A DNA stretch of 64,000 bases from Candidatus Parcubacteria bacterium. GTDB lineage: Bacteria > Patescibacteriota > Minisyncoccia > UBA6257 > HR35. Location of the stretch: NCBI GenBank assembly GCA_025999335.1, contig AP024681.1, positions 459,547-523,546 on the forward strand, given 5' to 3'. The translations under genes and the position numbers were made by a program. The notes under the pieces are model-generated. The model was not told the DNA's origin. It worked only from the letters and a program-made list of their open reading frames with translations, and did no database searches. Below, one piece after another: positions 4,460 to 25,455 of the stretch (positions within the stretch are counted from its first letter, which is position 1; each line of letters starts with the position of its first letter).

Positions 4460-6205
4460 TTAAGGCGTAGGTATTGTTATATTTGTAACATTAGCAGTTG
4501 TTAATGGTTGAAGAGAGCCGCTAATTGTTCTTTGCGAGAAATCACCTTTAAGTGAAAAATTAACTTCAGGAATAACCACAAAATTTTGAGGATCAGCATT
4601 AGCAGGGATGTCAACGATTACTTCAAAAACAAGATCTATCTCTTTATTAGCAAATTGATCATTAGGATCTTGACGATAGCCAGCATTAGCGGCTATTTTA
4701 TTAAGAGTGTAATTAAAAATTCCTGTTTGGGGATCAAATTTTAAGTTTTCAATAGTAGCATCACCGCTTACTTTATTGGTTAAATTAACACCTGGAGGAA
4801 ATTTAGCATTAAGATTTAATTCGCTGAAATCTTCAGCTTTAGTTTTAATTTTTACATGCCAGGCAAAATTAGTGATAGCTTCGTGAATAGGCGGGAAACT
4901 ACCTATTGTAGGGAATAAACCTTCATTATAAGTTAAAGAGTGAGTAAGCTCGGCACTACCTTTAATTTTTTTGACATCTTCTTGAAAGATAGCATATTCT
5001 TTTTCAACTTTTTCGACTTCTATAGGAATGGTTGGACTTCTAAAGTCAACTCTAACTTTTGCAGTAAAATTTTTATCGTTATTGGGATTAAAAATAGGCA
5101 AAGTTTTAAGAATAGAAGCAGAGAAATTAATAACTACTTTGTCATTAGGTTTTAAATTAAGTAATTCTGGTTTATTACGTCCATTCCAAATGATAGCTCT
5201 TTCTGCTCGAGAAAGATAACCACTAGAATTAATTGAGTCAAAATCAAATAATCCGCTAAAAGTTACTTTTACTTCATTGTTAGACATAATTGTTTCACTT
5301 TTATTTTCAATAGTTACTTCATAGGAGATATTAGCGCCACTATCAACAACATTATCATTAGGAGTGCTTCTAATCGTAAAAACTATCGGATTATTGACAA
5401 CTGTTGTTTTTGCTATTTGACTATCTAAAGCAAAGCTTTGATTTTCAAAATCAAAGTATATTTTAACCTTGAAAATCCCATCAGATCTTATATCATTAAT
5501 ATAACCATTAATAGTTATTTGCTTAGTGTCATTTTGGTCTAAAACAGGGAATTCCCAATAAAAAATATTACTTTTAGGAAAAGCATCAATTAGTTGAAAA
5601 CCAAAAGCTGGCTCAATATTCACTTTAATATTATTAAATTTTTCTTTAGTTAAATTAAAAAGATTAATTGATAATTGAAAAGGTTGGTTTATGTATATTT
5701 TATTTGGCAGAAAAATATTAGCTTGAATTGGGGCTTTATTAACTTTGACATTTAAATCGCCACCTTTTTCAAAACTGTATTCTTTGCCACTAATTTTATA
5801 GTTTAAAACTACTTTAATTTTTTCGTTCATTTCACCAGCATTGACAAAAAACAAACCAAGAGATTGTTTTTTAATATTTTTAGCTTCAACAATGCCTATT
5901 GGTATAACTCTTTCTTTTATAGATTTTTGATCATAAAAAAAAGCGCCTTCACTTAAAAAAACTTTTAGACTAACGTCTTCTAATCTTTGGTTTGATTGAT
6001 TGTCTATTTGGATAATATAATCACTTATTTCAAAAGAATTGACAATAGTTGGTCCGGTAATTGTTAGAGATAAGCCGGCGATATTAATGTTATTATTTTT
6101 AAAGAGCATAAAAATAAAAACACCGCCAATGATAATAAATATTAAAATACTAAAAATTAAAAGATAATTGCTAATTTTATTTAATGCTTTAAATAAGTTT
6201 GACAT
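4460..6205 (-). CDS. Hypothetical large beta-rich surface protein with an N-terminal membrane anchor
   Basis: 581 aa. There is a single N-terminal TM helix (YLLIFSILIFIIIGGVFIFMLF); the rest is Asn/Ser/Thr-rich with predicted beta-structure. No catalytic motif was recognised. Confidence 0.55.
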   Translation of the reverse strand: MSNLFKALNKISNYLLIFSILIFIIIGGVFIFMLFKNNNINIAGLSLTITGPTIVNSFEISDYIIQIDNQSNQRLEDVSLKVFLSEGAFFYDQKSIKERVIPIGIVEAKNIKKQSLGLFFVNAGEMNEKIKVVLNYKISGKEYSFEKGGDLNVKVNKAPIQANIFLPNKIYINQPFQLSINLFNLTKEKFNNIKVNIEPAFGFQLIDAFPKSNIFYWEFPVLDQNDTKQITINGYINDIRSDGIFKVKIYFDFENQSFALDSQIAKTTVVNNPIVFTIRSTPNDNVVDSGANISYEVTIENKSETIMSNNEVKVTFSGLFDFDSINSSGYLSRAERAIIWNGRNKPELLNLKPNDKVVINFSASILKTLPIFNPNNDKNFTAKVRVDFRSPTIPIEVEKVEKEYAIFQEDVKKIKGSAELTHSLTYNEGLFPTIGSFPPIHEAITNFAWHVKIKTKAEDFSELNLNAKFPPGVNLTNKVSGDATIENLKFDPQTGIFNYTLNKIAANAGYRQDPNDQFANKEIDLVFEVIVDIPANADPQNFVVIPEVNFSLKGDFSQRTISGSLQPLTTANVTNITIPTP

Positions 6206-8653: not shown

Positions 8654-9937
8654 ATGTTTAGTTCTAAAAAAAATTTTTTATTTGTTAGCATTTTATTGTC
8701 TTTCTTTGCGCTTTTATTTCTTTTACAATATGGGTATATATCTTTAGCTTTTGAAAATCCACCTTCACCTCCACCGTTCGGCGGTGGTTATTTGCAAACT
8801 CAATCTAATCAATTATTAATTACTAAACCGATTATGGTGCGTTCAGGAAATGATTTGAATATAGCCAGCGGTTCTTTGCTAAATGTTAGTGGTACGAGTA
8901 AATTCTATAGCCGTATTCAAGTTTTGGGCAATGCATCTCCTACTTCAGGCGTGGGGTTAGAATTAGGTTATGATGTTGCGAGTTCTGCCGGTATTATCAC
9001 TGCGGTTGATCGTGATGCGGGTTTTAGTTCTTTTAAAGATTTAAAATTAAATGCTAATAAAATTACCTTTGAAAATAATTTAAACCCAGTTTTAATTATT
9101 GCTAATAACACTCTTGTTGTCGGTACTTCGACTTCTAATTATCCTTTAGAAATTTTTAGAAATAATACTAGCAGCGTTTTAGCATTATCAGTTAATTCTT
9201 CTTCTAATTCTTTATATCCTAAAATTGTTTTTCGTTCCGGCAATCCTTTGCAAGAATTATTTCATTTAGGTGTTGTTTATAATAGCCCAACAAATTATGA
9301 ATTAAAAATCGCTACTTTGTCTAACTTAACAACTTCTGAAAGCATTGCTATTAGCCCACAATTAGATTTAAAATTAGGAGCCGGCAATTTGATAATGAAC
9401 AAGGGTGATTTAATTATGAATAATTCTGTTGCTCAATCAATTATTAAAAATTCAGGAAATCTAAATATTAATGCCTCTAATGACATAATTTTTTTTACTT
9501 CCAGTACTCAACAAAGAATGATTATTAAACAAAATGGCAATATTGGAATTAACAATCCTAATCCTTCAGCATTATTAGATGTTGCTGGTAAGGGAAAATT
9601 TTCAGAATTAGAAGTAACGGGAACAATGACTATTCCTGCTCTTTTTAAATATGGCTCTACATCTTCTGGCTATTATTATTGCATTCAAGATTTTATTATT
9701 CAATGGGGGGAGGTTGAGATACCAGCCACCCGTAAGGTTGCTAATATTAACTTACCTAAGGCATACATAGATAATTCTTATAATGTTCAAGTTTCCTTTA
9801 AATCAAACGTAGGAACTAATCGTTCATCTGATCCAGGCGTATTTCAAATAGATAAGCAACAATTTCAAATTATAAATAATTTTGGATTTTATTCAACTTT
9901 CACCTGGCTAACCGTTGGCAGGGGTAATTGTAATTAG
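8654..9937 (+). CDS. Secreted tail-fibre-like protein (signal anchor plus beta-rich repeats, C-terminal globular domain)
   Basis: 427 aa. It has an N-terminal hydrophobic segment and the motif IGINNPNPSALLDVAGKGKF, shared with the next two genes. Confidence 0.55.
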   Translation: MFSSKKNFLFVSILLSFFALLFLLQYGYISLAFENPPSPPPFGGGYLQTQSNQLLITKPIMVRSGNDLNIASGSLLNVSGTSKFYSRIQVLGNASPTSGVGLELGYDVASSAGIITAVDRDAGFSSFKDLKLNANKITFENNLNPVLIIANNTLVVGTSTSNYPLEIFRNNTSSVLALSVNSSSNSLYPKIVFRSGNPLQELFHLGVVYNSPTNYELKIATLSNLTTSESIAISPQLDLKLGAGNLIMNKGDLIMNNSVAQSIIKNSGNLNINASNDIIFFTSSTQQRMIIKQNGNIGINNPNPSALLDVAGKGKFSELEVTGTMTIPALFKYGSTSSGYYYCIQDFIIQWGEVEIPATRKVANINLPKAYIDNSYNVQVSFKSNVGTNRSSDPGVFQIDKQQFQIINNFGFYSTFTWLTVGRGNCN

Positions 9938-9981
9938 TTTTTTAAAACAATAAAATAATATGCTAAAATAATTAAAAGAAG

Positions 9982-11061
9982 ATGATTTATGGAATTTTTA
10001 AAGATAGATTTAATTTCTCTTTATTAATAATAACAATTGTTTTAAGTTTTAGTTTATTTTTTATTTCTTCTCAAAATAATCAAGTTTTAGCTCAACAAAT
10101 TTGTTTGCCAACTGATCAATATTTAATTTGGGAAGGAGATTGGCTTGCTAACAATATACCTATGACTTCTAGCACTCAAAATATTTTAGCCCCTTCGCCA
10201 ATGTTTGTTTTTAATAATAATATAGGTATTGGCACAACCACGCCTCAGTACACTTTACATGTTATAGGTAGTGTTGCCGCTGATACAGTTTGCATTGCCG
10301 GTGATTGTCGTAATGAATGGCCCGTTGCGACCGATAGTGTTAGTGGCTCAGGCGCAGTGTCGCAAGTTGCTTTTTGGGTTGACACAAAAAGAATAAGCGG
10401 AGATTCTAATTTTATTTGGAATACTTCTTCTCATACTTTAGTTGTTAATGGTACAGTAAGTTCAACAAATTTAATTGGTGCTTTAGATGTTGGTTATGTG
10501 CAAGCAGGTGTTTTTGGTAGTAAAGTTGGGATTGGCGATTATACCTTTCCATCTAATTTAACTATTAATAATAATTTATATGTAACTAATACTATTTTAG
10601 CAATGGCAACTATTACGACTAATAAAGCTTTTTGCATAAATAATAGTTGCATAAACGCTTGGCCCGAAACAGACTATGTTAGAGGTACAGGAACAACGGA
10701 TCGTTTAGTTAAATGGATTAATACTTCAACAGTAGGCAATTCAATTATCTATGAAAAAGACAACAAAATAGGTATTAACTATATTAATCCTGAAGCGACA
10801 TTAGACATAAACGGTTCTTTGCAAGTGTTATCATTTATTATGCCTCCAGGCGCGCAAGATGATTATGTTTTAACTTCTGATGATTCTGGTAGGGGAACGT
10901 GGCAACCAAAAGCATCTTTACCTGTGGGTGCTTGCGTTTTAGCTAGTTCTACTGATGCTATACCTCCAAATTCTGGTTTTTATATTGATGCCAGCGTTGA
11001 AGTTATTCAGCAAAACACTGCTACGGGTACATATTATTATATTTTTTGCAAAACTCAATAA
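9982..11061 (+). CDS. Secreted tail-fibre-like protein, a paralog of the N-terminal part of 11070..14318
   Basis: 359 aa. It has a signal peptide and NNNIGIGTTTPQYTLHVIGS; its ~250-aa core (VAFWVDTKRISGDSNFIW…NKIGINYINPEATLDINGS) is collinear with residues ~120–370 of the next protein. Confidence 0.6.
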   Translation: MIYGIFKDRFNFSLLIITIVLSFSLFFISSQNNQVLAQQICLPTDQYLIWEGDWLANNIPMTSSTQNILAPSPMFVFNNNIGIGTTTPQYTLHVIGSVAADTVCIAGDCRNEWPVATDSVSGSGAVSQVAFWVDTKRISGDSNFIWNTSSHTLVVNGTVSSTNLIGALDVGYVQAGVFGSKVGIGDYTFPSNLTINNNLYVTNTILAMATITTNKAFCINNSCINAWPETDYVRGTGTTDRLVKWINTSTVGNSIIYEKDNKIGINYINPEATLDINGSLQVLSFIMPPGAQDDYVLTSDDSGRGTWQPKASLPVGACVLASSTDAIPPNSGFYIDASVEVIQQNTATGTYYYIFCKTQ

Positions 11062-11069
11062 TTTAAAAA

Positions 11070-14000
11070 ATGAGTGTTAAAATAAAATTTATCTATATTT
11101 TTACTCTTTATTTAATTTTTCTGTTTCTGTTTTTTTTAGTTTTTTATACCATTACTCCATTAGAAAAAGTTCCAGCTCAATTAAGCTGTCCTTACGATGC
11201 CAAGAGATTAAAATTTGTTGGAGAATGGGGTTCGAATAATATAGTTATAACTACTAATAATGATAAATATTTATCAAAGTTAATATTTTTTCAAGCAAAT
11301 AATAATCAAGTGGCAATTAATAAAAGCATATCTTTAGCTAATAAAAATTTAGATATCATTGGCACTTTAGCTTTAACAGGTAATCTATGTCTTAATGGTG
11401 TGTGTCGTTCTGGTTTAAACGAAGTTCGTGGTTTAATTGGCGAGGGAGTTACAGGTTCAGTTGCTTTTTGGGTTGCTAATGATGAAATTCGAGGTGATTT
11501 TAATTTTATTTGGCAAACTTCAACAAGAAATTTGATAATATCTAATCTTGTTACTTCTACTCAGCTTAAAGGAACTTTAAAAGCTGACTATGTAAAAAGC
11601 GGTTCATTTTTAAATAATTTTTTTACTTTTCCGCGAAATTTGAGTATCGGCAATAATTTATATGTAACTAATACTATTTTAGCTAAAGCAACAATTACTT
11701 CTAATAGAGCTTTTTGCATAGGCACTGATTGCAAATCTTTCTGGCCCTGGTTATTGCAAAATTTTGTTCGTGGCAGTGGGACTATTAATTATATAGCTAA
11801 ATGGATTAACCTTGATACCATTAGTAAGTCAATTGTTTATGAAAATAACAATAAAATAGGCATCAACACAACATCATTAATTAGCGATGTAAATGTTGCT
11901 GGGTCTTTAAAATTAAGATGTCTTTTTTCTCCGACAACTACTTGTTTTATTTTGCCAACAACAACTCAAAGGGGCTTTGTTTTAACTTCAGACAGTAGCG
12001 GCAAAGCTTACTGGTCTTCATTTAGCCCAATTCCTCGAAATACATTTATTTTAAGTTTATATCCTGATTTAGATAAAAAATATCCTAATAATTGGAAATA
12101 TGCTAATGCTTATATTTTGTTAAAGTCTAAAGGTGCATGGCTTATACCAAGTTCTCAAAATTTTAAAGAACCAGATGATATATATGACAACATTGATCCT
12201 ATTCGTTTAAGTCAAAAAAGAAGCAATGCAACCGGAGTTCTATATGATTATGCAATAAATAACATAAACATAAAAAGGATATATATATTTGGAGGTAATG
12301 GTGGTGTGTCAAGTGGTAATAATGCTTTAAATACTATTGAATATTTAGATTTAAATTCTAGTACATATCAATTTATTAGCAGTACTACTGTTTTGCCGCG
12401 GAAAATAACTGATTCAAGCGCTGTTTTTAATTCAAACAATGGAGATGTTTATATTATTGGTGGTCGCGATCATGATAGTCTTGACTCAGATCAGCATATT
12501 TCAAATTCTGTTGTTATATGTAAGTTAAACTCGCAGAATCAACAATTAACATGCGGTGAAGATACGAATATTATAAAGCCTATGAATTATCGCCGTAGAT
12601 CTCATAAGGCTATTTTATATAATAATAAAATAATAGTTATTGGAGGGAAGGGTAGGCTTGCAAACGAACCTGATGCAAATAATAAAATTTTAAATACTAT
12701 TGAATATTTAGATTTAACGTCTGCTTCAAGCCAGCGAATATGGAAAATTGCGTCTGCAACTTTAACTGTACCACGAATAAATTTTGATATAGTTTTATGG
12801 CAAGATCCTAGCACCGGAAAGGATGTTGTTTATGTTATTGGCGGCAATGATGAAAACAATAAATGTTACAAAGACATAGAAAAAATTACTTTATCTACAG
12901 GAACAAATCCTATTAGTTCAGTAGAACGCCTAAATGATTTTATTTATTATGTAAGAGATCATTCCTTGGAGATTTTTCAAAAAAGAATTTTTTTGATAGG
13001 TGGTTCAGTCAATAGTCAGATTGGTTGCTATAATGCTAATTTTAGATCTGATCGCGCTTATTATACAGAATCAATCTCATCGTGGTCCTTACTTCCCGCT
13101 CGTTTAAAATATAATGTTTCAAAGCATGTTAGTATAAGTCTTTTTCAAGATAAACCCTATATTTTTGCAATCGGTGGCATCGCTCCTGGAGGAATTACAA
13201 GTTCTATTCAAATATACGATCCTTCTTATCCGGCTTTTATTTTGAATAGCGATTACGATTTACTTTATGATAATAGATCACAAGGAGCAGCTTCAGTGAT
13301 TGTTGATGATAAAATTTTTTACATAGGTGGCAATAGGTTGTCAAACTCATTCAATAAAGTGGCTATTTTATATTTAAATACTACTTCTCTAAAATGGGTT
13401 AATAGTCAACCTATTAATAAAGAGAGAACTTATGCGCAGGCAGTAGTTGCTCAGGGTTATGGTCTTGGTAATAATACTACTAAATATATTTATTTAATAG
13501 GTGGTCACACCGGCAATGCTGCTAATGTTAATAATAGTTTAAAAAGTGTAGAAATACTTGACTTAGAACAATTTAAGTCAAACACAAACACGCCATGGAG
13601 AGAAGTCGCCACCGCTTTTCAATTACCTGAAGAAAGAACTCATCATGGAGCCATAGTAGTTAAAAATAAAATATTTGTTGTTGGTGGTTTTACGCCTCGT
13701 GGTACTGGCTATGAGGTTACTACTTCTATTATAATGCTGAATCCAACAAGTAGTCTTATTGGAGGAAATAAATGGAAGTATGTTGGCAAATTGCCTAATC
13801 CACGTGCGAGATTTGCTATCGCGCCATTTCATAATGATGATAATAATGGTGACGGTTTTTATATTATTGGTGGCGTTACTGATGATATTAATTCCGTTTA
13901 TAAAGATTATACTAATAAGCGAGATGAAATAGTTAGGTGTACTATAAAAAATATCGATACACTTGATCCTTCTGTTGATTGCAAAGGAGCATTGAATATG

Positions 14001-14318
14001 TACTATCAGCGCATGGATGCAAGAGCTAATCTTCTTAATAATGAAATAATAATCATAGGTGGACGTAATCGGGGTACTTTTGATAGTATTGAAAAATTCG
14101 ATTGGCGAAATGTCACTTCTAGCAATACTGCTAGTAGCGTAAAAACTATATATTTGCCTTCAGTTTTGAATTTAGCAAGACATAGCCACATTTCTCATGT
14201 ATACAGGAATAAAATTTTTGTTATAGGTGGACATAGCGGTAGCAATCTTTTGACAGAGACAGAAATTTTTGACAATCCTATATATTACTTATATTATTAT
14301 ATCTATGGCAGTCAATAA
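11070..14318 (+). CDS. Large secreted protein: tail-fibre-like N-terminal domain followed by a 12-blade Kelch beta-propeller region
   Basis: 1082 aa with a signal peptide. Its N-terminal domain is homologous to 9982..11061. Twelve Kelch-like blades are marked by IYIFGGNGG, VYIIGGRDH, IIVIGGKGR, VYVIGGNDE, IFLIGGSVN, IFAIGGIAPGG, IFYIGGNRL, IYLIGGHTGN, IFVVGGFTPRG, FYIIGGVTDD, IIIIGGRNRG and IFVIGGHSGS. Confidence 0.7.
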   Translation: MSVKIKFIYIFTLYLIFLFLFFLVFYTITPLEKVPAQLSCPYDAKRLKFVGEWGSNNIVITTNNDKYLSKLIFFQANNNQVAINKSISLANKNLDIIGTLALTGNLCLNGVCRSGLNEVRGLIGEGVTGSVAFWVANDEIRGDFNFIWQTSTRNLIISNLVTSTQLKGTLKADYVKSGSFLNNFFTFPRNLSIGNNLYVTNTILAKATITSNRAFCIGTDCKSFWPWLLQNFVRGSGTINYIAKWINLDTISKSIVYENNNKIGINTTSLISDVNVAGSLKLRCLFSPTTTCFILPTTTQRGFVLTSDSSGKAYWSSFSPIPRNTFILSLYPDLDKKYPNNWKYANAYILLKSKGAWLIPSSQNFKEPDDIYDNIDPIRLSQKRSNATGVLYDYAINNINIKRIYIFGGNGGVSSGNNALNTIEYLDLNSSTYQFISSTTVLPRKITDSSAVFNSNNGDVYIIGGRDHDSLDSDQHISNSVVICKLNSQNQQLTCGEDTNIIKPMNYRRRSHKAILYNNKIIVIGGKGRLANEPDANNKILNTIEYLDLTSASSQRIWKIASATLTVPRINFDIVLWQDPSTGKDVVYVIGGNDENNKCYKDIEKITLSTGTNPISSVERLNDFIYYVRDHSLEIFQKRIFLIGGSVNSQIGCYNANFRSDRAYYTESISSWSLLPARLKYNVSKHVSISLFQDKPYIFAIGGIAPGGITSSIQIYDPSYPAFILNSDYDLLYDNRSQGAASVIVDDKIFYIGGNRLSNSFNKVAILYLNTTSLKWVNSQPINKERTYAQAVVAQGYGLGNNTTKYIYLIGGHTGNAANVNNSLKSVEILDLEQFKSNTNTPWREVATAFQLPEERTHHGAIVVKNKIFVVGGFTPRGTGYEVTTSIIMLNPTSSLIGGNKWKYVGKLPNPRARFAIAPFHNDDNNGDGFYIIGGVTDDINSVYKDYTNKRDEIVRCTIKNIDTLDPSVDCKGALNMYYQRMDARANLLNNEIIIIGGRNRGTFDSIEKFDWRNVTSSNTASSVKTIYLPSVLNLARHSHISHVYRNKIFVIGGHSGSNLLTETEIFDNPIYYLYYYIYGSQ

Positions 14319-16041: not shown

Positions 16042-17247
16042 TTAATTTTCTTGATCGTTGTTGTTTTTAGTTGCTGGTGAACGAGCGGTGATTAATTTAT
16101 AACTTAAAAAGATAATAACTATAAAAGCAATTGTAATCATAATCCATGGTAGAGATTTATATTTTTCTGTAAAGCGACTTTCTTCATTGTCGCAAGCATT
16201 GCCTAACTTATCTTCATCGTCATCTGTTTGATCAGGATTATAATTTAAAGGACAATTATCAAAAGCATTAATAACATTGTCATAATCATCGTCGTCACAA
16301 GCATCACCACGCCCATTATTATTTAAATCTTTTTGATCGGGATTATAAATATTGACACAGTTATCTTTAATATCAGGTATGCCATCTTTGTCGTCATCAT
16401 TTGGTTTAAATTGAGAATTAGAATGAATATTTTCTGGAGTAATGTTGAGAGAGTAAACATTCTTTTCGTTGATTAAATTTGCATTAATATACCCAGTATT
16501 ACCTATATAAATTTCAGGGTTATAGTACAATTTATAATTATGCCCAGGTTTTGCTAAAAATCTTATAAAATAATCTGTTGTTTGAAGAACATTATTTTGT
16601 TGCAAAATTAATTCCGTAATTCTTAAAGGCTGGCTAAAAAAGAAAGTTATAAGCCATTGATTACTTTTTGTTAGGGGGAAATTTATAGTATTATCATTAA
16701 TAGCTTCTTTGGCTAAAACTATTTTTTCTTGTTGACCTTCTATGACTTTAATTTCTATAAATTCAGGCATTTTTGTAAACCTATCTAAATAAAAACTTAT
16801 GCCTGATGATTCCAAAGGTTGAGCTGCTGATATTTTTAAAGTTACGCTATTATTAACTTTACTTACAGGAAATTCAACAAAAGTTTCGTAATTTTTATCA
16901 AAAGCTTTTTGTAATTCTTCTTTAGGTGTTTGATTATTGTATTCTTCGACAGTAAGAGGTATTTCTTGAACAGTAGAAACTTGGTTAAGATAGTAAGGTT
17001 CTAATTTTTTTTCAGTTTCATCAATAAGCAAAATAACATTAATAACATTCTTTAATTCATTAAATTTTAATTCAACAACTTTTGGTTGCGACAGAGGAAT
17101 ATTCTTAATATCAAGATAATGTCTAAATTTTGATATAAGATTATCGTAATTTTGACCGTAGACTGTTGAGAAAAATATTAATAATAAAATTAGAATTAAT
17201 CTATGATTGTTTTGAAGAAGATTCATAGCGATGTTTTTTAATTTCAA
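16042..17247 (-). CDS. Secreted protein with thrombospondin type-3 (calcium-binding) repeats and a C-terminal TM anchor
   Basis: 401 aa with an N-terminal signal. DDDKDGIPDIKDNCVNIYNPDQKDLNNNGRGDACDDDDYDNVINAFDNCPLNYNPDQTDDDEDKLGNACD is a classic TSP3 DxDxDG/NCP…NPDQ repeat run. The C-terminal hydrophobic helix is WIMITIAFIVIIFLSY. Confidence 0.65.
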   Translation of the reverse strand: MKLKNIAMNLLQNNHRLILILLLIFFSTVYGQNYDNLISKFRHYLDIKNIPLSQPKVVELKFNELKNVINVILLIDETEKKLEPYYLNQVSTVQEIPLTVEEYNNQTPKEELQKAFDKNYETFVEFPVSKVNNSVTLKISAAQPLESSGISFYLDRFTKMPEFIEIKVIEGQQEKIVLAKEAINDNTINFPLTKSNQWLITFFFSQPLRITELILQQNNVLQTTDYFIRFLAKPGHNYKLYYNPEIYIGNTGYINANLINEKNVYSLNITPENIHSNSQFKPNDDDKDGIPDIKDNCVNIYNPDQKDLNNNGRGDACDDDDYDNVINAFDNCPLNYNPDQTDDDEDKLGNACDNEESRFTEKYKSLPWIMITIAFIVIIFLSYKLITARSPATKNNNDQEN

Positions 17248-19217: not shown

Positions 19218-19901
19218 TTAAGCAATAGTTAAAGCGATAATATTTTTTGCGCCAGCTTTTTTTAAAGTTTCAGCGCATTCTTTTAAAGTAGCGCCAGTTG
19301 TTTTTATATCGTCAACAAGAATAATATTTTTAGGCGGAAGAGATTTAAGATTAAAACTATTTTTTAAATTTTCTAAACGTTCTTTAAGATTTAAGCCAAC
19401 TTGATCTGGTGTATCTTTTATTTTTATTAAAATATCAGCTATAGGTATAGCCGCAGTTTGATTTATGGCTTGAGCTAAAATATTGGTTTGATTAAAGCCT
19501 CGATGTAGTAATTTTTTTTGAGTAATGGGAACTGGAGTTAGATAATAATTATCAAAATTAAGATTTTGTGTTTGCAATAGTAATTTACCAATTAGACAAC
19601 CTAAATCAAAAATTATCTGTGAGGCGTTGTTTTTGCCATATAAAATTATTTTTTTTAAAATTTCGTCTTCGTAATTACCAAAATGGAGATGTAATTTTAT
19701 AGGATTGCGATGGTTAGTAATATCACATTGTTCGTTAAGACGTTTGCCACATTGAAAACAGTTAATATATAATCGGAAATTTATTTTTTGAAGGCAGATC
19801 TCGCATAAATATTGATTTTTATTTTCGAGGCAGCTTAAACAGTATTTAGGTGATAGAATTTTTTGAATTAAATGATATAATTTAACTAATGATTTTTTCA
19901 T
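19218..19901 (-). CDS. comFC: ComF family competence protein (phosphoribosyltransferase domain)
   Basis: 227 aa. It has an N-terminal 4-Cys zinc finger (CLSC…CEIC…CFQCGKRL) and a C-terminal PRTase motif (IILVDDIKTTGATL). Confidence 0.75.
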   Translation of the reverse strand: MKKSLVKLYHLIQKILSPKYCLSCLENKNQYLCEICLQKINFRLYINCFQCGKRLNEQCDITNHRNPIKLHLHFGNYEDEILKKIILYGKNNASQIIFDLGCLIGKLLLQTQNLNFDNYYLTPVPITQKKLLHRGFNQTNILAQAINQTAAIPIADILIKIKDTPDQVGLNLKERLENLKNSFNLKSLPPKNIILVDDIKTTGATLKECAETLKKAGAKNIIALTIA

Positions 19902-20929
19902 TTTTAGAAAATAAGTTTTTAGTTATTGATTTTGGTTCGGTTAATATCAAGGTTATAGAAGCGATAAAAAAAGGATCAACAATTGAAGTAACTAATTTTG
20001 GCATTGTGCCGATTATTAATTTTAAAGAAGTTATATCGTCTTCGTATATTTTAGAAGAGAACATTGCTTTAATTTTAAAAAATTTTTTGCAAGAAACTAA
20101 TATTAAAACAAAGCAAGTTTATTTTAGCGTGCCATCTCCTTATATATTCTCAACTAATTTTATTGTTCCTAATATTCCTGAAAGAAATTTACCGCAAGTT
20201 ATTACTTTTGAATCACAAAAACAGTTGCCTCTATCGGTTAGCGATATTGAGATAGAATATCGATATTTTTTAAGTCAAGGAGAAGATCAAGCTAATCAAT
20301 GGTTGATCTTTTTAGTTGCGACACCAAAAAGTTATATTAAGAAGTTAGAGAATATTTGTAATTTCACACAACTAAAATTTGCTGGCTATGGCGCTGAATA
20401 TTTTAATGTGGAATCATTTTTTAAAGATAAGCCTGGTAATTTTGTGGTTATTGATATTGGACATGCTTATGGCAATATATGTTTGATTAAGAATGGCAAA
20501 ATTAATTATGCTAACAAATTAAAAATTCGTGCTTATGATTATCTTAATTCCATAATGAATGCTACTCAATATCCCGAATCTCAGGTTTTAGATTTTGTTG
20601 CTAAAAAAGGTTTTGCTTTTAATCCAGAAGAAAAAGATTTAAAAAATTTAGCAAATGTTTTTTTAGATTCTGTAGCTTCGACTGTTCAATCAGAAATTAC
20701 AAGACTAGAAACAAGCTTTTTAGCAAGGGTGGATAAAATTTATTGGACAGGGGGAGCGGTTATTTTAGATAATTTTTTCGATGAAATGTTGAAAAGATTA
20801 TTGCGTTATCAACAAGAAATTTTAACGCCTGCTAATTTTGTTTATGGTGATAAATTTAAAATGCTGAAAGAAAAATCAACACTTTTTACTCAAGTTACAG
20901 GACTTCTTTTGAAAAAAATAATCGGTTAA
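19889..20929 (+). CDS. pilM: Type IV pilus assembly protein PilM (actin-like ATPase)
   Basis: 346 aa. LVIDFGSVNIKVIEA is the PilM/FtsA-like N-terminal phosphate-1 motif. The annotated start overlaps the divergent comFC start by 13 bp, so the true start may be slightly downstream. Confidence 0.65.
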   Translation: MIFSFLENKFLVIDFGSVNIKVIEAIKKGSTIEVTNFGIVPIINFKEVISSSYILEENIALILKNFLQETNIKTKQVYFSVPSPYIFSTNFIVPNIPERNLPQVITFESQKQLPLSVSDIEIEYRYFLSQGEDQANQWLIFLVATPKSYIKKLENICNFTQLKFAGYGAEYFNVESFFKDKPGNFVVIDIGHAYGNICLIKNGKINYANKLKIRAYDYLNSIMNATQYPESQVLDFVAKKGFAFNPEEKDLKNLANVFLDSVASTVQSEITRLETSFLARVDKIYWTGGAVILDNFFDEMLKRLLRYQQEILTPANFVYGDKFKMLKEKSTLFTQVTGLLLKKIIG

Positions 20930-20994
20930 AATATAATTATAAGTTTAGAGTTTATGATTTATATTAAATTTTTCGTTATTGATCTTTAATTTAT

Positions 20995-21519
20995 ATGCCA
21001 GACATTAGCACTAATATAAAAAATATTATTCCTGTGGGTTTAGTATTTCCTTTTTTGTTGATTTTAATCATAGAATTCGGTATTGATATGGGTTTACAGT
21101 CTTACAATAGTAAGTTAGAGAATACTAAAAATAGCTTAATTAACGAAATTAAAGATATTAAGAATAAATCCGGCGATGAAATAAATAAAAGACCTGAATT
21201 TAATTTCTTCTCGCGGTTCGTTAATGTCGCTACCTTGATTAAAGAAAGAAAAAGAATTAAAGATGTTATTGATTCTTTTAATAGAATAATGCCTACTTTT
21301 GTTGATATAAGCAATTTTAATTACGATGCTGAAAAGCAACAGATAACCTTTCAAGCATCGGTATCTAATTGGAGAGATTATGTTAGGCTTTATAAATATT
21401 TATATAGTCAAAATAAAATTCGAGTTGAATCATTTTCATTGCCAACAGGCGATGAAGCCACAGGAAAAATAAATTTTTCAATTGCGATTATTTTAAACAG
21501 TAATTTTTTTGAAAAGTAA
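20995..21519 (+). CDS. pilN: PilN-like pilus assembly protein
   Basis: 174 aa, bitopic with a single TM near the N-terminus, located immediately after pilM. Confidence 0.5.
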   Translation: MPDISTNIKNIIPVGLVFPFLLILIIEFGIDMGLQSYNSKLENTKNSLINEIKDIKNKSGDEINKRPEFNFFSRFVNVATLIKERKRIKDVIDSFNRIMPTFVDISNFNYDAEKQQITFQASVSNWRDYVRLYKYLYSQNKIRVESFSLPTGDEATGKINFSIAIILNSNFFEK

Positions 21520-21521
21520 TA

Positions 21522-22064
21522 ATGGGACTTATATTTAAACTTTTGCCAATTTTGCTTATCGTAGCTGTTTTATATGTTTTAATGTATAATCTTATTCCTA
21601 CTTTTAAAACGACAATTAATTTAGCCAACGAACTTAAAAAATTAGAAGCTGAAAAAAAGAGTTTGAAAGTAGCTGAAGAATTTGTTAATTCTTTGTCAGC
21701 AAAAATTCCTATTCAAAGTACTAACATCCAGGAATTTCAGAAAAGTTTATTAAAATTTTTACCCGCTGATCCTTTGGAAGAAGAATTAATTTATCAATTA
21801 TATGTTTATCACAAGGATTTTGGTTATAAATTTTCAGGTTTGAGCATTGGCAAAGGAGGTGAAAAATCATTAAATGATCAAATTTTACCAGTGAAAACAT
21901 TAACTTTTTCTTTATCTTTGAAAGATGATTTGGACAAGATCGTTAAATTTATTTCTACTTTGGAAGAAAATGTGCGTATTTTATCAATAAAAAATTTTAA
22001 TGTTGATCGTAATGGCAATGCAAGTTTTAACGTCGAAGCTTATTTTATGCCTTTGGCATATTAA
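21522..22064 (+). CDS. pilO: PilO-like pilus assembly protein
   Basis: 180 aa with an N-terminal TM and a coiled coil (ANELKKLEAEKKSLKVAEEF), in the canonical position after pilN. Confidence 0.5.
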   Translation: MGLIFKLLPILLIVAVLYVLMYNLIPTFKTTINLANELKKLEAEKKSLKVAEEFVNSLSAKIPIQSTNIQEFQKSLLKFLPADPLEEELIYQLYVYHKDFGYKFSGLSIGKGGEKSLNDQILPVKTLTFSLSLKDDLDKIVKFISTLEENVRILSIKNFNVDRNGNASFNVEAYFMPLAY

Positions 22065-22070
22065 AAGCGA

Positions 22071-22577
22071 ATGAATAAAAGTTTTTTAACCATCATAATT
22101 AATTCTCTATTTTTAGTAATGTTGCTGATAGGTGTTTTTTACTTTCTTTTTGTTAGATTTGTAAAAAGTATTCCTGATATGGAAGTGCCTCCTGAATTAT
22201 CTTTTGTTAATAGAAAAGCTACTTTTTTTCAAGAATACACAAAATCTAATGATTGGACGAATACAATAGAGACATTACAAAAATCACTTGGTATTTCTTT
22301 TAAATTACTTGCTGATTTAGATAATAAAAATTTTTTCGCTATTAGTTCTAATGAATTAACTAGGACATCTTTATTTACTAAAAATATTCAATTACCGCCT
22401 CCAACATTAACAACTTCATTACCACCTCAGTCAGACAACCAGCCAACACCATCAACGACTTCGACGGCAACTTCAACACCAACTTCAACGACTACAACAT
22501 CGACAGCGACTTCAACTAATTTTCCTACAACAACAAAGGTTAGCACATCTTCTAAAAGTAATGCTCCGAAAAGATAA
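22071..22577 (+). CDS. Membrane-anchored protein with a Ser/Thr/Pro-rich tail, encoded within the pilus operon (possibly a PilP analogue)
   Basis: 168 aa with an N-terminal TM. The C-terminus is PTPSTTSTATSTPTSTTTTSTATST. Confidence 0.5.
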   Translation: MNKSFLTIIINSLFLVMLLIGVFYFLFVRFVKSIPDMEVPPELSFVNRKATFFQEYTKSNDWTNTIETLQKSLGISFKLLADLDNKNFFAISSNELTRTSLFTKNIQLPPPTLTTSLPPQSDNQPTPSTTSTATSTPTSTTTTSTATSTNFPTTTKVSTSSKSNAPKR

Positions 22578-22676
22578 GATTAATTCAAATGATAAAATTA
22601 ACATTGATTAATCATTATTTATTCTTATAAAATAAATAAGAGCGTTAGTGAATAGCAAATTATTAAAATTTTTAAA

Positions 22677-24383
22677 ATGAAAGACGAACAAATAATAAAT
22701 TTTTTTTCAAGCAAATACCCAGAAATTAATAATTGGCTTATTGATGCAAAAATTAATAACATTTCTTTTGAAGATTATATTTTTAATAAAAGCCTTATTC
22801 CAATTGAAGAATTTTTAAATTTTAAAGCGTCAATTTACAATTTACCTATCAAGGTTTTTCAAGTTGACGAAACAATCCCTAAAGATATTTTAAATAAGAT
22901 ACCCGAAGCAGTAGCTCGTAACTATAAAATTTTAGCTTTGGAATTAAGAAATAATGTTTTGTACATTGGTGTTGTTGATCCAGAAGTGCCTGATTTGCAT
23001 AATAAAGTTTTAGAACCATTAAAAAATAATTTAAAATTAGAACCTCAATTAGTATTAATTTCCGTTAAAGACTTCTATTTACATTTAGAAGATTATTCTG
23101 ATTTTGAAAATGAAATGAAAAAATATGTTTTAGATTTTCGAAGTAGTAGTGGACGTAAGCTTGACACCGATAAACCTTTAGCTTTTCAACAGGAAGTTAT
23201 TAGTAGCGAAGAAGGTCCTATTATTAGATTGTTTGAGTTGTTAGTTAGAAAAGCTGTTGCTATTCGAGCTTCAGATATACATTTAGAACCTTTACCGGAT
23301 AAAGCGCGTATTCGTTTTCGTTTGTTTGGTGATTTAAAAACTATAGCTTATTTTCCTAAAGATGTTCATAATCCTTTAGTTAACAGAGTTAAAATTTTAA
23401 CCAATTTAAGATTAGACGAAACAAGAGTTACGCAAGATGGACGTTTTCGAGCGGTTGTTCATGGAAGAGAAATTGATTTTCGTGTTGGTATTTTGCCAAC
23501 TATTAACGGAGAAAAAGTTGCCATAAGAATTTTAGACCCCTTGGTTGGTCTTAAAAAGATTAAAGATTTAGGGTTAGCTGATTATCATATAGATATGATG
23601 TTAAGAAATATTTCTAAAACATTTGGAATGATTCTAGTTACCGGTCCAACTGGTTCAGGAAAAACAACAACTTTATACGCTTTAATTCAAGAAATTAATA
23701 ACGATAAAATTAATATTATTAGTTTGGAAGACCCTGTTGAATATAAAGTTTTTGGCATTAACCAATCACAAATTAGACCTGAAATTGGTTATTCTTTTGC
23801 TAAAGGTTTACGGGAAATTTTAAGACAGGATCCTGATGCTATTTTGGTTGGTGAGATTCGCGATGAAGAAACAGCTGAATTAGCTACTCATGCTGCTTTA
23901 ACAGGACATATAGTTTTTTCAACTTTGCATACTAATACTGCCCCAGGAGCGATACCTCGTTTGATAGATATGGGGGTCAAGAATTATTTTTTGCCATCAA
24001 CTTTAAATTTAGTTATTGCTCAACGATTAGTTAGAGATTTATGTCAAAATTGTTTAGTTGAAAAATCCTGTCCTAAAGAAATTATTAGCGAAGCTGAAAA
24101 AGCCTTACAAGATTTACCTGATAATTTGCGTAATTTTGAAATTAAATGTTTTGACGCTAAAGGTTGCGATAAATGTCACAATCGTGGTTATATAGGTAGA
24201 ATAGGTATTTTTGAAATGTTTGAAATGACGAAAGAGCTTTCTGATATAATATTAGAACATAAAGGAGAGGGTGAGATTTTAGAGATTTTAAAAAAGCAAA
24301 ATTTTATTTCTTTACGAGCTGATGGTATAATTAAAGCGAGTAAAGGATTGGTTTCTTTAGAAGAAGTATTTAAAGTTACTTAA
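22677..24383 (+). CDS. pilB: Type IV pilus assembly ATPase PilB (GspE family)
   Basis: 568 aa. It has the Walker A motif VTGPTGSGKTTTLYA, Asp/His boxes and the tetracysteine motif CQNC…CDKC typical of PilB/GspE. Confidence 0.85.
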   Translation: MKDEQIINFFSSKYPEINNWLIDAKINNISFEDYIFNKSLIPIEEFLNFKASIYNLPIKVFQVDETIPKDILNKIPEAVARNYKILALELRNNVLYIGVVDPEVPDLHNKVLEPLKNNLKLEPQLVLISVKDFYLHLEDYSDFENEMKKYVLDFRSSSGRKLDTDKPLAFQQEVISSEEGPIIRLFELLVRKAVAIRASDIHLEPLPDKARIRFRLFGDLKTIAYFPKDVHNPLVNRVKILTNLRLDETRVTQDGRFRAVVHGREIDFRVGILPTINGEKVAIRILDPLVGLKKIKDLGLADYHIDMMLRNISKTFGMILVTGPTGSGKTTTLYALIQEINNDKINIISLEDPVEYKVFGINQSQIRPEIGYSFAKGLREILRQDPDAILVGEIRDEETAELATHAALTGHIVFSTLHTNTAPGAIPRLIDMGVKNYFLPSTLNLVIAQRLVRDLCQNCLVEKSCPKEIISEAEKALQDLPDNLRNFEIKCFDAKGCDKCHNRGYIGRIGIFEMFEMTKELSDIILEHKGEGEILEILKKQNFISLRADGIIKASKGLVSLEEVFKVT

Positions 24384-24393
24384 TTTAAAATTT

Positions 24394-25455
24394 ATGGATC
24401 AAAGATTAAAAGATTATTTACTTTTTGTAGCTCAACAAGGAGGTTCTGACTTGCATATCTTGCCGGGAAGTTTTCCGGTAATGAGAAAAGACGGGGATCT
24501 TTTTCCGATGACGCAATTTGATATTATTAGCGGCGAAGAAAGTAAAAAAATGTTATTTTCTTTGCTTAACAATGACACTGAAGAAAAATTAAAAACTTTT
24601 AAAGATGTTGATTTTTCTTTTTCTCTTGACGAAAAAGTACGATTTCGAGTAAACATTTATTTGCAAGCCAATGGTTATGCCGGTGCTTTTAGATTTATAC
24701 CCAATGAAATGAAGAGTATTGAAGAATTGAATTTGCCTGTTATTTTAAATGAATTTATTGAAAGAAGACAAGGATTTATTTTGTTAACCGGACCCGCGGG
24801 TACTGGTAAATCAACTACTTTAGCTTCATTGATAGATACTATTAATCACCAAAGACAAGACCACATTATTACCATTGAAGAGCCAATTGAGTATTTATTT
24901 GTTTCTGATAAAGCTGTTATTTCTCAAAGAGAAATTCCTACTCATGCACCTGATTGGCATAGAGCTTTGAAAGGAGCTTTGCGTCAAGATCCCGATGTAT
25001 TGATGATTGGTGAATTGAGAGATGCCGAGTCTATTTCTATTGCTTTAACCGCAGCGGAAACAGGACACTTAGTTTTAGCAACAATGCATACTAACTCCGC
25101 AGCACAAACAGTTGATCGTATAGTTGATGTTTTGCCAGAAAATCAAAAAAACCAAGGAAGGTTACAGCTAGCTTCGACTTTAATAGGTATTGTCTCTCAG
25201 AGATTAGTACCTCGTATTAAAGGAGGTCGTATTCCTGCTTGTGAAGTGCTAATAGCTAATAATGCAGTCAGAAACTTGATTCGTGAAAATAAAATATACC
25301 AAATAGATAGTGTTATCGATACAAGTTTAAGCGAAGGAATGTTTTCTTTAGAGCGTTCTTTAGTTAATTTAATTCAAATGGATGAGATTACTTTAGAAAA
25401 AGCGATTGAATATAGTCTCAAGCCAAGCAAGTTGAAGTATTTATTAGAAGAATGA
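24394..25455 (+). CDS. pilT: Twitching-motility retraction ATPase PilT
   Basis: 353 aa. It has LLTGPAGTGKSTTLASLID and the PilT-type motif GHLVLATMHTNSAAQTVDRIVDV. Confidence 0.85.
   Translation: MDQRLKDYLLFVAQQGGSDLHILPGSFPVMRKDGDLFPMTQFDIISGEESKKMLFSLLNNDTEEKLKTFKDVDFSFSLDEKVRFRVNIYLQANGYAGAFRFIPNEMKSIEELNLPVILNEFIERRQGFILLTGPAGTGKSTTLASLIDTINHQRQDHIITIEEPIEYLFVSDKAVISQREIPTHAPDWHRALKGALRQDPDVLMIGELRDAESISIALTAAETGHLVLATMHTNSAAQTVDRIVDVLPENQKNQGRLQLASTLIGIVSQRLVPRIKGGRIPACEVLIANNAVRNLIRENKIYQIDSVIDTSLSEGMFSLERSLVNLIQMDEITLEKAIEYSLKPSKLKYLLEE

Follow-up and report, generated by a model that had tools for sequence, protein, structure and literature searches.

Three closely spaced and intact open reading frames of 427, 359 and 1082 amino acids follow one another on the + strand of the 64-kb stretch of Parcubacteria DNA that we analyzed (the window). 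They encode the putative fibre proteins P1 (8654–9937), P2 (a short fibre; 9982–11061) and P3 (a long fibre; 11070–14318), and these coordinates match exactly the three consecutive genes that had been recognized in a sequence-only reading of this DNA. That reading had also proposed that each of the three proteins starts with a signal or anchor peptide. In agreement with this, each possesses one strongly hydrophobic N-terminal window of 19 amino acids (Kyte-Doolittle mean 2.35–2.79), and our hydropathy scan of the three proteins detected no further transmembrane-like segment. The locus is flanked by rplI (ribosomal protein L9) on the upstream side and by the gene for PolX on the downstream side.

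P1 comprises an N-terminal hydrophobic segment, a leader (AFENPPSPPPFGGGYLQ), a beta-rich stalk, one capping loop (IGINNPNPSALLDVAG; 9542–9589, + strand) and a small C-terminal tip. The hydrophobic segment (8675–8731, + strand; amino acids 8–26; mean hydropathy 2.35 over 19 residues) may serve either as a signal peptide or as a signal-anchor, and a possible signal-peptidase site (S-L-A, with cleavage ahead of F) follows it. We found only two relatives of P1, with amino acid sequence identities of 99 and 66%, respectively. The P1 tip (9692–9919, + strand; amino acids 347–422) is probably a Gp53-like_C beta domain, a match that stays under the Pfam threshold: when PF21882 was compared with the tip alone it scored 23.1 bits, and it scored 22.9 bits with P0052 (the relative with 66% identity), against a cut-off of 24.9 bits; both matches span model positions 6–83/84.

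P2 is composed of an anchor, a conserved N-terminal domain, two capping loops (IGIGTTTPQYTLHVIG, 10222–10269; IGINYINPEATLDING, 10768–10815; both + strand), two C-x4-C-xxWP motifs and a minimal tip of about 50 amino acids (10909–11058, + strand; amino acids 310–359). Its second loop, found like the first by a motif scan, lies within the repeat unit G(T/S)GTxxxLxKW...IYE...IGIN...YVLTSDxxGxGxW. The tip is the Kelch-less counterpart of that of P3, and its C-terminal strand (YYYIFCKTQ) resembles the corresponding strand of P3 (YYYIYGSQ). P3, in turn, is built from an anchor, a stalk paralogous to P2 (11166–12119, + strand; amino acids 33–350), two six-bladed Kelch propellers and a Tyr-rich, conserved C-terminal strand (NPIYYLYYYIYGSQ; 14268–14315, + strand). 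P2 had been regarded as a collinear paralog of residues ~120–370 of P3; the collinearity stands (38% identity, E = 8e-60), but the BLASTP alignment covers residues 33–349, that is, the whole P3 stalk and thus everything past the anchor.

The loop IGI(G/N)…P…L(D/H)V…G is shared by the three proteins, and all four instances quoted in the initial reading were recovered. When the window was scanned in all six frames, the full pattern occurred three times, exclusively in P1 and P2; the loose IGI[GN] core additionally caught a degenerate P3 copy, and no comparable site was found outside of P1–P3. The loop agrees with the published capping-loop consensus of MAT/S74 fibres, V-G-G/N-pi-x-x-P-x-x-x-L (PMC10769870), and it corresponds to the "capping loop" known from trimeric beta-helix fibres. 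The resemblance is not fortuitous because a profile of the P1 family reaches the Bdellovibrio protein Bd2133 through this very loop, with HMMER aligning the P1 copy to three Bd2133 loops, and because a profile of the P2/P3 stalk retrieves 4,027 representatives at E ≤ 1e-3. The P1-family profile matched the Bdellovibrio MAT structures 8OND (Bd2133; E = 1.1e-8), 8OML, 8OJN and 8ON4, and a P2 profile extended with canonical relatives matched, PDB-wide, five MAT fibres only (2e-13 to 6e-3). A profile built from P2 and P3 alone had no match in the PDB, so the link of these two proteins to the MAT fibres is transitive; in addition, the capping loops of P3 itself are degenerate (e.g., IGINTTSLISDVNVAG; 11856–11903, + strand). 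P2 relatives carry 1–8 canonical VGIGTxxPxxKLxV loops apiece (at least two in all except two of them), and they include Peptidase_S74 "tail fiber domain-containing" proteins. Taken together, these profile matches support the placement of P1–P3 in the tail-fibre-type (S74/MAT) beta-helix fibre superfamily, in line with the tail-fibre or adhesin character initially ascribed to the motif. Domain scans of P1–P3 themselves detected no S74 domain, and the C1q-like C-terminal domain that had been considered was not found in any of the three proteins. Since monomer models based on shallow alignments gave pLDDT values below 50 for the P1 and P3 stalks, we infer the beta-helix fold of the capping-loop stalk from homology only.

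The distal part of P3 consists of two six-bladed Kelch propellers, as the twelve blades noticed at the outset had implied. Propeller 1 (12243–13277, + strand; amino acids 392–736) contains blades 1–6 and propeller 2 (13278–14267, + strand; amino acids 737–1066) contains blades 7–12; Pfam matches, blade markers, the AlphaFold model and Foldseek agree on both. P3 matches PF24681 (E = 1.9e-49) and Kelch_1 (E = 1.4e-39), and it displays twelve "hhhhGG" blade markers spaced by 51–66 amino acids. An HMM of the P3 blades recognized 12–13 stretches in each of four P3 orthologues; in P0047, the only one of the four for which the table was inspected blade by blade, one of the 13 stretches was a spurious match in the stalk, which leaves 12 blades. 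The P3 model (pLDDT 70–91 over residues ~380–630) aligned in Foldseek with six-bladed Kelch domains, those of KLHL12, Keap1 and SAKe6, with TM-scores to the target of 0.78–0.81. P3 thus shares the six-bladed Kelch fold with KLHL12, Keap1 and bacterial NanM; it differs from these proteins in its export signal and in the fibre stalk that bears two tandem propellers, and from KLHL12 and Keap1 in that a domain scan revealed no BTB or BACK domains.

The ~200-amino-acid N-terminal domain of P2 and P3 is common to about 19–21 representative proteins, whose tips are of the Gly_rich_2, S74, Gp53-like_C (2 of 21 proteins), DUF5122 propeller, H_lectin or Kelch type. DUF5122 is another type of propeller seated on the same N-terminal module. 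On contig L003, an independent contig with housekeeping neighbors, P0080 (582 amino acids) adjoins P0199 (854 amino acids, six Kelch repeats); 512 of 523 stalk residues are identical, and P0199 differs from P0080 by a Kelch propeller inserted ahead of the common LYWFQKQ end. P0108 and P0210 behave as a pair in the same way. Pairing of a short with a long fibre is hence recurrent and the tips are mosaic. The view that the combination of a fibre with a Kelch propeller is unusual needs to be qualified, as Kelch propellers sit on the same stalk in at least two other lineages of the cluster (P0199 and P0210), the N-terminal module can also bear a DUF5122 propeller, and jumbo-phage virion proteins contain Kelch propellers. 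Distant P3 orthologues have a conserved stalk (67–79% identity) and a variable tip (propellers 40–49%); their C-terminal strand is 75–81% identical (75–100% conserved). In the closest P3 relative the pattern is reversed (stalk 84%, propeller 2 99%), a sign that modules may have recombined.

One could envision that P3 is a stalk-tethered extracellular enzyme whose propellers act on sugars for nutrient scavenging, for instance as a NanM-like sialic-acid mutarotase or in a galactose-oxidase-like manner, with P1 and P2 as structural companions. P3 weakly matches the Pfam family NANM (25.9 bits; cut-off 45) and the NCBIfam models TIGR03547 (YjhT mutarotase; 25.7, cut-off 243) and TIGR03548 (24.4, cut-off 256), and the analogous proteins P0199 and P0210 bear the JGI product name "N-acetylneuraminic acid mutarotase". 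A precedent is provided by the endosialidase tailspikes (phage K1F endoNF), in which a trimeric fibre is combined, as in P3, with a six-bladed propeller that is catalytic; the K1F propeller is of the sialidase type and lies upstream of the stalk, while that of P3 is of the Kelch type and distal. However, the NanM-type scores fall far below the family cut-offs, with generic Kelch models scoring highest on the P3 propellers, the rapid divergence of the propellers suits a recognition surface better than a conserved active site, and relatives bear lectin and other non-enzymatic tips on the same stalk. We therefore regard an enzymatic role as quite unlikely.

The locus could alternatively be viewed as the tail-fibre module of a prophage that has been domesticated or is decaying, a leftover of phage receptor binding without a cellular role. 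Capping loops and S74-ended relatives are typical of phage tail fibres (PMC10769870), the P1 tip shows a weak match to a "gp53-like" C-terminal domain of phage tail fibres, and Kelch propellers are known in virion proteins of the jumbo phages PhiPA3, Noxifer and Phabio, a likeness to P3. P1–P3 also share the triple beta-helix capping-loop repeat with S74-type phage fibres and tailspikes (T5 pb1 L-shaped fibre, K1F endosialidase), in which Peptidase_S74 is an intramolecular chaperone that also terminates distant P2 relatives. Yet the three proteins differ from these fibres by their missing S74 domain, their non-phage location and their N-terminal export segments; to our knowledge, phage fibres lack export or anchor segments. 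Over some 15 kb to each side of P1–P3 we detected no genes for an integrase, capsid, terminase, baseplate or tail, the GC content of the region is not deviant, the reading frames are unbroken and the stalk has been conserved. Gene order is kept in related genomes: a contig (L002) encoding a 99% identical P1 carries recO, an S41 peptidase gene, rplI, the P1 gene and a P2-like gene, and another (L001), whose P3 is only 54% identical, carries a P2-like gene, a P3-like gene and the PolX gene. A tblastn search of 50,697 phage genomes with P1 and P2 yielded no match, and scanning the viral contigs of IMG/VR with the stalk profile yielded no confirmed relative. These data support a chromosomal rather than a prophage nature of the genes, as originally suggested, and render the prophage scenario highly improbable.

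We also considered that P1–P3 might be structural parts of the envelope or of an appendage, such as a surface-layer spike or a type IV pilus accessory, without recognition of a specific ligand. Genes for a type IV pilus (PilM, two T2SSE ATPases) are clustered 5.5 kb downstream of the locus, which is also flanked by predicted surface proteins (DUF11, TSP_3); two N_methyl pilin-like genes are found 3.5–5 kb upstream of the P0080/P0199 pair, and one relative contains a Shufflon_N (PilV-type) domain. Against this stand the lack of a prepilin leader and of an N_methyl motif in P1–P3 (sequence and domain scans), the PolX gene and other unrelated genes that separate the fibre from the pilus genes, and both the swapping of lectin, propeller and S74 tips on one stalk and the fast-evolving head, which favor recognition over scaffolding. 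A purely structural function thus appears unlikely to us.

The closest known counterparts are the mosaic adhesive trimer (MAT) fibres Bd2133, Bd1334, Bd2439, Bd2734, Bd2740 and Bd3182, with which the predator Bdellovibrio bacteriovorus recognizes its prey (Caulton et al., 2024; PMC10769870); MAT fibres are the only PDB sequences matched by our profiles. Like P1–P3, they are encoded on the chromosome of a cell rather than by a phage, with several paralogues per genome; they begin with an export signal, continue with a conserved N-terminal domain (a likeness of layout) and have the same capping-loop motif in the stalk and interchangeable C-terminal tips, non-S74 ones included. Bdellovibrio lives on other cells, as may the Parcubacterium. 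P1–P3, however, stem from a member of the CPR and not from a diderm predator, their stalks are shorter (~300 versus ~600–1000 amino acids), their N-terminal domain features a conserved Cys and C-x4-C-xxWP motifs, and their genes are arranged in tandem as pairs of a short and a long member. None of the six MAT tips with a solved structure (beta-sandwich, TNF-like, C-type lectin and S74; PMC10769870) is a Kelch double propeller within a minimal cap.

We consider it rather probable that P1–P3 are chromosomally encoded, exported surface adhesin fibres of a Parcubacteria (CPR) bacterium that belong to the capping-loop superfamily. The N-terminal hydrophobic segment would mediate export, whether it is a signal peptide that is cleaved off or an anchor that stays in place, and the conserved N-terminal domain would keep the fibre on the cell surface, while a stalk of capping-loop repeats, probably an intertwined trimer, would project a variable tip. 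P1 would carry as its tip a small beta domain of the Gp53-like type, P2 a minimal ~50-amino-acid cap and P3 a P2-type cap with the two propellers placed just ahead of the last strand. The propellers may serve as heads that bind a ligand, either a glycan or a protein, on the surface of a host cell, of another cell or of a particle, and specificity would evolve by rapid divergence and exchange of tips on a constant stalk. Such a role in adhesion or host recognition is suggested by analogy with the MAT fibres and by the pattern of a conserved stalk and a fast-evolving tip. P1–P3 are good candidates for how an ultrasmall Parcubacteria cell grips its host or a particle.

The three fibre genes, encoding P1 (427 aa), P2 (359 aa) and P3 (1082 aa), lie on the + strand at positions 8654-9937, 9982-11061 and 11070-14318, exactly where the sequence-only reading had placed them. 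They are tightly packed, with gaps of 10 nt between rplI and the P1 gene, 44 nt between the P1 and P2 genes and 8 nt between the P2 and P3 genes; a promoter and terminator scan performed no better than on shuffled sequence. Each protein starts with one highly hydrophobic segment (19-aa window; Kyte-Doolittle mean 2.35-2.79), and a hydropathy scan revealed no further transmembrane-like segment in P1, P2 or P3, which agrees with the signal or anchor peptides originally proposed for all three. A small-x-Ala site follows each segment (SLA before F in P1, VLA before Q in P2, VPA before Q in P3), suggesting that the N-termini may be either cleaved signal peptides or signal-anchors. Lipoprotein anchoring of P2 and P3 was rejected because inspection of the sequences found no lipobox before their conserved Cys. 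The automatic open reading frame for the downstream PolX gene begins at a TTG codon at 14269, within the P3 gene (14269-14318); translation probably starts at the ATG at about 14305 (MAVNKEL...), giving an overlap of about 14 nt with the end of the P3 gene. At L001, one of the loci of relatives, the overlap between the PolX homologue and the P3-like gene is 11 nt.

Upstream of the fibre genes we found, in this order, folD, a class II tRNA synthetase gene, recO, an S41 peptidase gene and rplI, and downstream the genes for PolX, a TSP_3-repeat protein, a DUF2339 protein and a phosphoribosyltransferase, followed by a type IV pilus cluster. These neighbours include no gene for an integrase, capsid, terminase or tail, and the three genes (GC content 0.29-0.32) differ little in composition from the remainder of the window. 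At L002, the locus of a strain whose P1 is 99% identical, recO is likewise followed by the S41 peptidase gene, rplI, the P1 gene and a P2-like gene, and at L001, the locus of a relative with a P3 of only 54% identity, a P2-like gene, a P3-like gene and PolX stand in the same order. Tblastn searches with P1 and P2 against 50,697 phage genomes returned no match, and neither GTDB genomes nor IMG/VR yielded a confirmed relative when scanned with the stalk profile, an HMM derived from the stalks of P2 and P3. Housekeeping neighbours, conserved gene order and the lack of relatives in the phage genomes and IMG/VR thus sustain the initial view that these genes are not a prophage remnant; since the export signals on P1-P3 speak against such an origin as well, we regard it as very improbable.

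The mosaic adhesive trimer (MAT) fibres of Bdellovibrio are described (Caulton et al., 2024; PMC10769870) as surface-displayed trimers in which a signal peptide is followed by a conserved β-rich N-terminal domain of ~130 aa, a β-helix stalk with capping loops of the consensus V-G-G/N-pi-x-x-P-x-x-x-L, and interchangeable C-terminal tips (an S74 chaperone, novel β-sandwiches, TNF/C1q-like domains or a C-type lectin). According to the same text, the tip of Bd2439 binds GlcNAc and Proteus LPS, and the capping loop is also found in the S74 fibres of phages T5 (pb1) and K1F. The loops of P1 and P2 fit this capping loop of MAT and phage S74 fibres, as anticipated when the motif shared by the three proteins was assigned to a tail-fibre or adhesin type. 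All four motif instances quoted at that stage are present, and a six-frame scan of the whole window recovered the full pattern only in P1 (one copy) and P2 (two copies), the copies in P3 being degenerate, for instance through loss of the Pro. The common part of P1 and P2 is the loop region only (31 aa, E=7e-4).

A profile made from P1 and two relatives matched only fibre proteins of Bdellovibrio bacteriovorus in the whole PDB (8OND, Bd2133, E=1.1e-8; 8OML; 8OJN; 8ON4), and the HMMER alignments fall exactly on the GN(I/V)GI(G/N)xxxPxxxL(D/E)VAG loops of these proteins. A profile of P2 with its canonical relatives likewise matched MAT fibres only (PDB, E=2e-13 to 6e-3), here too with alignment to the loops of Bd2133, and one of P2 and P3 alone matched nothing in the PDB at E<=10, a pattern that points to a real but transitive link of P2 and P3 to the solved MAT fibres. 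In another profile (A3), built from full-length sequences, the Kelch signal predominated for that reason. The 46 relatives found with P2 carry one to eight canonical VGIGTxxPxxKLxV loops each, with at least two in all but two of them; several are 'tail fiber domain-containing' proteins with a C-terminal Peptidase_S74 domain. Their repeat unit, G(S/T)GTxNYLxKW...IYE...IGI(G/N)...L(D)V.G...YVLTSDxxGxGxW, is kept in P2 and P3. Judged by capping loop, mosaic tips and similarity to solved fibres (direct for P1, transitive for P2 and P3), the three proteins are MAT-like; with respect to the MAT N-terminal domain, the comparison is bounded by PDB constructs that cover only the C-terminal parts of the Bdellovibrio fibres. 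P1-P3 differ from the S74 tail fibres of phages: PF13884 (Peptidase_S74) has no match in P1, P2 or P3 at E<=0.1 and occurs only in distant relatives, and because the S74 domain and a phage context are both lacking, we do not class them as S74 tail fibres.

At E<=1e-3, an exhaustive HMM search with the stalk profile retrieved 4,027 representative proteins, and 687 of these pass E<=1e-10; many are giants, the longest measuring 7,185 aa, in which the repeat unit recurs up to 32 times. In about 19 representatives the N-terminus itself aligns with the first ~200 positions of the profile; one of these is from another Parcubacteria genome, KatS3mg096, of the same study. The N-terminal domain that they share with P2 and P3 has a Cys right after the hydrophobic segment and a C-x4-C-xxWP motif. 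Behind it stand different C-termini, namely Gly_rich_2 (three proteins), Peptidase_S74 (two), Gp53-like_C (two), a DUF5122 'delta-60' β-propeller, an H-type lectin (H_lectin) or Kelch. These proteins combine one conserved presenting end with a swapped, putative recognition end, which is the logic of the MAT fibres. The leader that follows the anchor of P1, AFENPPSPPPFGGGYLQ, is unlike that of P2 and P3 and common to other family members, such as P0012. The tip of P1 aligns with nearly all of the Gp53-like_C model (positions 6-83/84) at 23.1 bits, just under the Pfam gathering cut-off of 24.9, and P0052, a 66%-identical relative of P1, does so over the same stretch at 22.9 bits against the same cut-off; the P1 tip alone has no PDB match. 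The small tips of P2 and of P0080, a Kelch-less relative, gave no Pfam match even at E<=10, and a likeness of these tips to the phage 'tail collar' was dropped for this reason.

Among the relatives of P2, capping-loop stalks also occur in fusion with a T6SS Hcp domain (P0016), a Shufflon_N/PilV-type domain (P0006) and DUF2341/PA14 (P0027), and the fibre module has therefore been combined with several other surface or secretion systems. C(I/L)GxDC(R/I)xxWP, a second repeat signature that contains a conserved C-x4-C pair, occurs in P2 (10291-10323 and 10633-10665) and P3 (11715-11747), in 58 of the 216 fetched fibre-family proteins overall and in up to five or more copies in giant proteins; the available text of the MAT paper (PMC10769870) contains no mention of it. 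The C-x4-C pair could serve as a disulphide hairpin or as a metal site on the trimer axis.

The sequence-only reading had taken P2 for a collinear paralogue of residues ~120-370 of P3. The two are indeed paralogues, but the collinear stretch is the whole region after the anchor, residues 34-339 of P2 and 33-349 of P3 (38% identity, E=8e-60). Beyond it, P3 matches PF24681 (168 bits, E=1.9e-49; cut-off 50) and Kelch_1 (134 bits, E=1.4e-39; cut-off 20.1), and these scores, together with twelve 'hhhhGG' blade markers spaced 51-66 aa apart, substantiate the twelve Kelch blades first proposed. A blade HMM built from P3 matched 12-13 stretches in each of four orthologues; one of the 13 in P0047, the closest relative of P3, is spurious and lies in the stalk, so that its blades number 12. 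In the AlphaFold2 model of P3, pLDDT is 70-91 for residues ~380-630 and ~730-930, which make up most of the Kelch region. Values below 50 for the stalk (residues 29-378) are expected because the model is a monomer of what would be an intertwined fibre, computed from an 8-sequence alignment; a monomer model of P1 (3-sequence alignment; mean pLDDT 33.7) was unusable. Foldseek, the check suggested at the outset for Kelch propellers, matched the P3 model to the six-bladed Kelch domains of KLHL12, Keap1 and the designed SAKe6 (TM-score to target 0.78-0.81, rmsd 3.6-4 Å, ~320-340 columns), and the predicted structure is consistent with two six-bladed propellers.

Full-length relatives of P3 fall into four 90%-identity clusters of 1060-1083 aa, one at 92% identity to P3 (three members, presumably including P3 itself) and three at 51-54%; among the best 150 of the 4,027 stalk-profile matches, Kelch is present only in these. 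The clusters of two representatives that lack Kelch also contain longer proteins that have it, namely P0199 (854 aa, six Kelch_1 repeats) and P0210 (659 aa, six repeats). P0199 is encoded next to P0080 (582 aa) on a 201-kb contig (L003, 8229-12565), amid def, fmt, aspS and serS, and the genes flanking the pair are unrelated to P1. The two stalks are identical at 512 of 523 positions (98%) up to '...GFVYTGVIE', both proteins end in 'LYWFQKQ', and the difference between them is the propeller just before the last strand. P2 and P3 mirror this pair in that they are collinear up to the tip, P2 ending in '...YYYIFCKTQ' and P3 in its 12 blades followed by NPIYYLYYYIYGSQ. The C-terminal strand of P3 is 75-100% conserved in orthologues, though their propellers are only 40-49% identical. 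From these alignments we conclude that a minimal tip cap accommodates the propellers immediately ahead of its last strand, and that tandem pairs of a short and a long protein are a recurrent arrangement. The 98% stalk identity of P0080 and P0199, set against about 41% for P2 and P3, would imply a very recent duplication or ongoing gene conversion in the L003 lineage. A HEPN/nucleotidyltransferase pair resembling a toxin-antitoxin system is located at L003 13453-14211, ~0.9 kb downstream of the Kelch fibre gene with one 287-aa gene between.

P3 and its distant orthologues share 67-79% identity in the stalk and 75-81% in the C-terminal strand, but 40-49% in the propellers; the double Kelch head evolves about twice as fast as the stalk. 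The comparison with P0047 (alignment A1) gives the reverse, with 84% identity for the stalk, 92% for propeller 1 and 99% for propeller 2, and this reversed pattern suggests that the stalk and head modules recombined recently. Conservation of the stalk alongside a head that changes fast and can be exchanged would be typical of receptor-binding proteins, whether of phages or of the MAT type as far as the available text describes it (PMC10769870). P3 might instead be a stalk-tethered enzyme of the NanM type. Its scores are far below the NanM/YjhT family cut-offs (TIGR03547, 24.4 versus 256 bits; TIGR03548, 25.7 versus 243; PF24996, 25.9 versus 45) and its head evolves fast, so that we consider an enzyme of this kind quite unlikely.

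Fibre and virion proteins with propellers are not without precedent: Kelch also occurs in virion proteins of jumbo phages, endosialidases carry a sialidase propeller, and a further example is the platform of the phage phi11 receptor-binding protein. The literature searched discusses MAT fibres only for Bdellovibrio-like predators and, among the papers listed, had no mention of both Kelch and CPR. P3 differs from the MAT tips in the available part of the published description (PMC10769870) in having a Kelch head, and the available supplementary text mentions neither Kelch nor propellers nor CPR.

Two predicted surface proteins are encoded nearby on the - strand, one of 581 aa with an N-terminal transmembrane segment and a DUF11 domain (4460-6205) and one of 401 aa with calcium-binding repeats of the thrombospondin type 3 kind and a transmembrane segment at the C-terminus (16042-17247). 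The type IV pilus cluster (19889-25455, + strand) begins 5.5 kb downstream of the fibre genes and comprises PilM, three small unannotated open reading frames, a 568-aa PilB-like and a 353-aa PilT-like T2SSE ATPase; at L003, two N_methyl pilin-like genes are found 3.5-5 kb upstream of the P0080/P0199 pair. This presence of pilus genes near both loci would suit a role of P1-P3 as a pilus accessory or a structural component of the envelope, which we nevertheless deem unlikely, as the three proteins lack pilin features.

The reading that we favour, and hold to be reasonably probable, is that P1-P3 are exported and then retained at the cell surface by their N-terminal ends, where they would assemble into short, probably trimeric, β-helix fibres with three different tips. 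The propellers of P3 would be the heads that bind a glycan or protein, be it on a host cell or on a particle. A bolder and decidedly more tentative proposal is that P1-P3 are the host-recognition fibres of this Parcubacterium, a CPR counterpart of the MAT repertoire of Bdellovibrio; P2 and P3 might then co-assemble or pair, setting the number of Kelch propellers per fibre, and host range might evolve through divergence and recombination of the heads.

Little is known about the way in which ultrasmall CPR/Patescibacteria locate and attach to their hosts, as stated in a 2024 preprint on Saccharibacteria, and type IV pili are the only structures so far implicated in host binding there. In this Parcubacterium, MAT-like fibres whose tips have been swapped form a conserved chromosomal set, one of the tips being a double Kelch head, and P1-P3 are thus concrete, testable candidates for host or particle recognition by CPR cells. 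They carry the principle of mosaic fibres with interchangeable tips into a new major lineage and add a new type of tip, a propeller within a minimal cap. If the host-recognition proposal is true, such fibres would be a general, phage-independent device for cell-to-cell recognition by predators and episymbionts.
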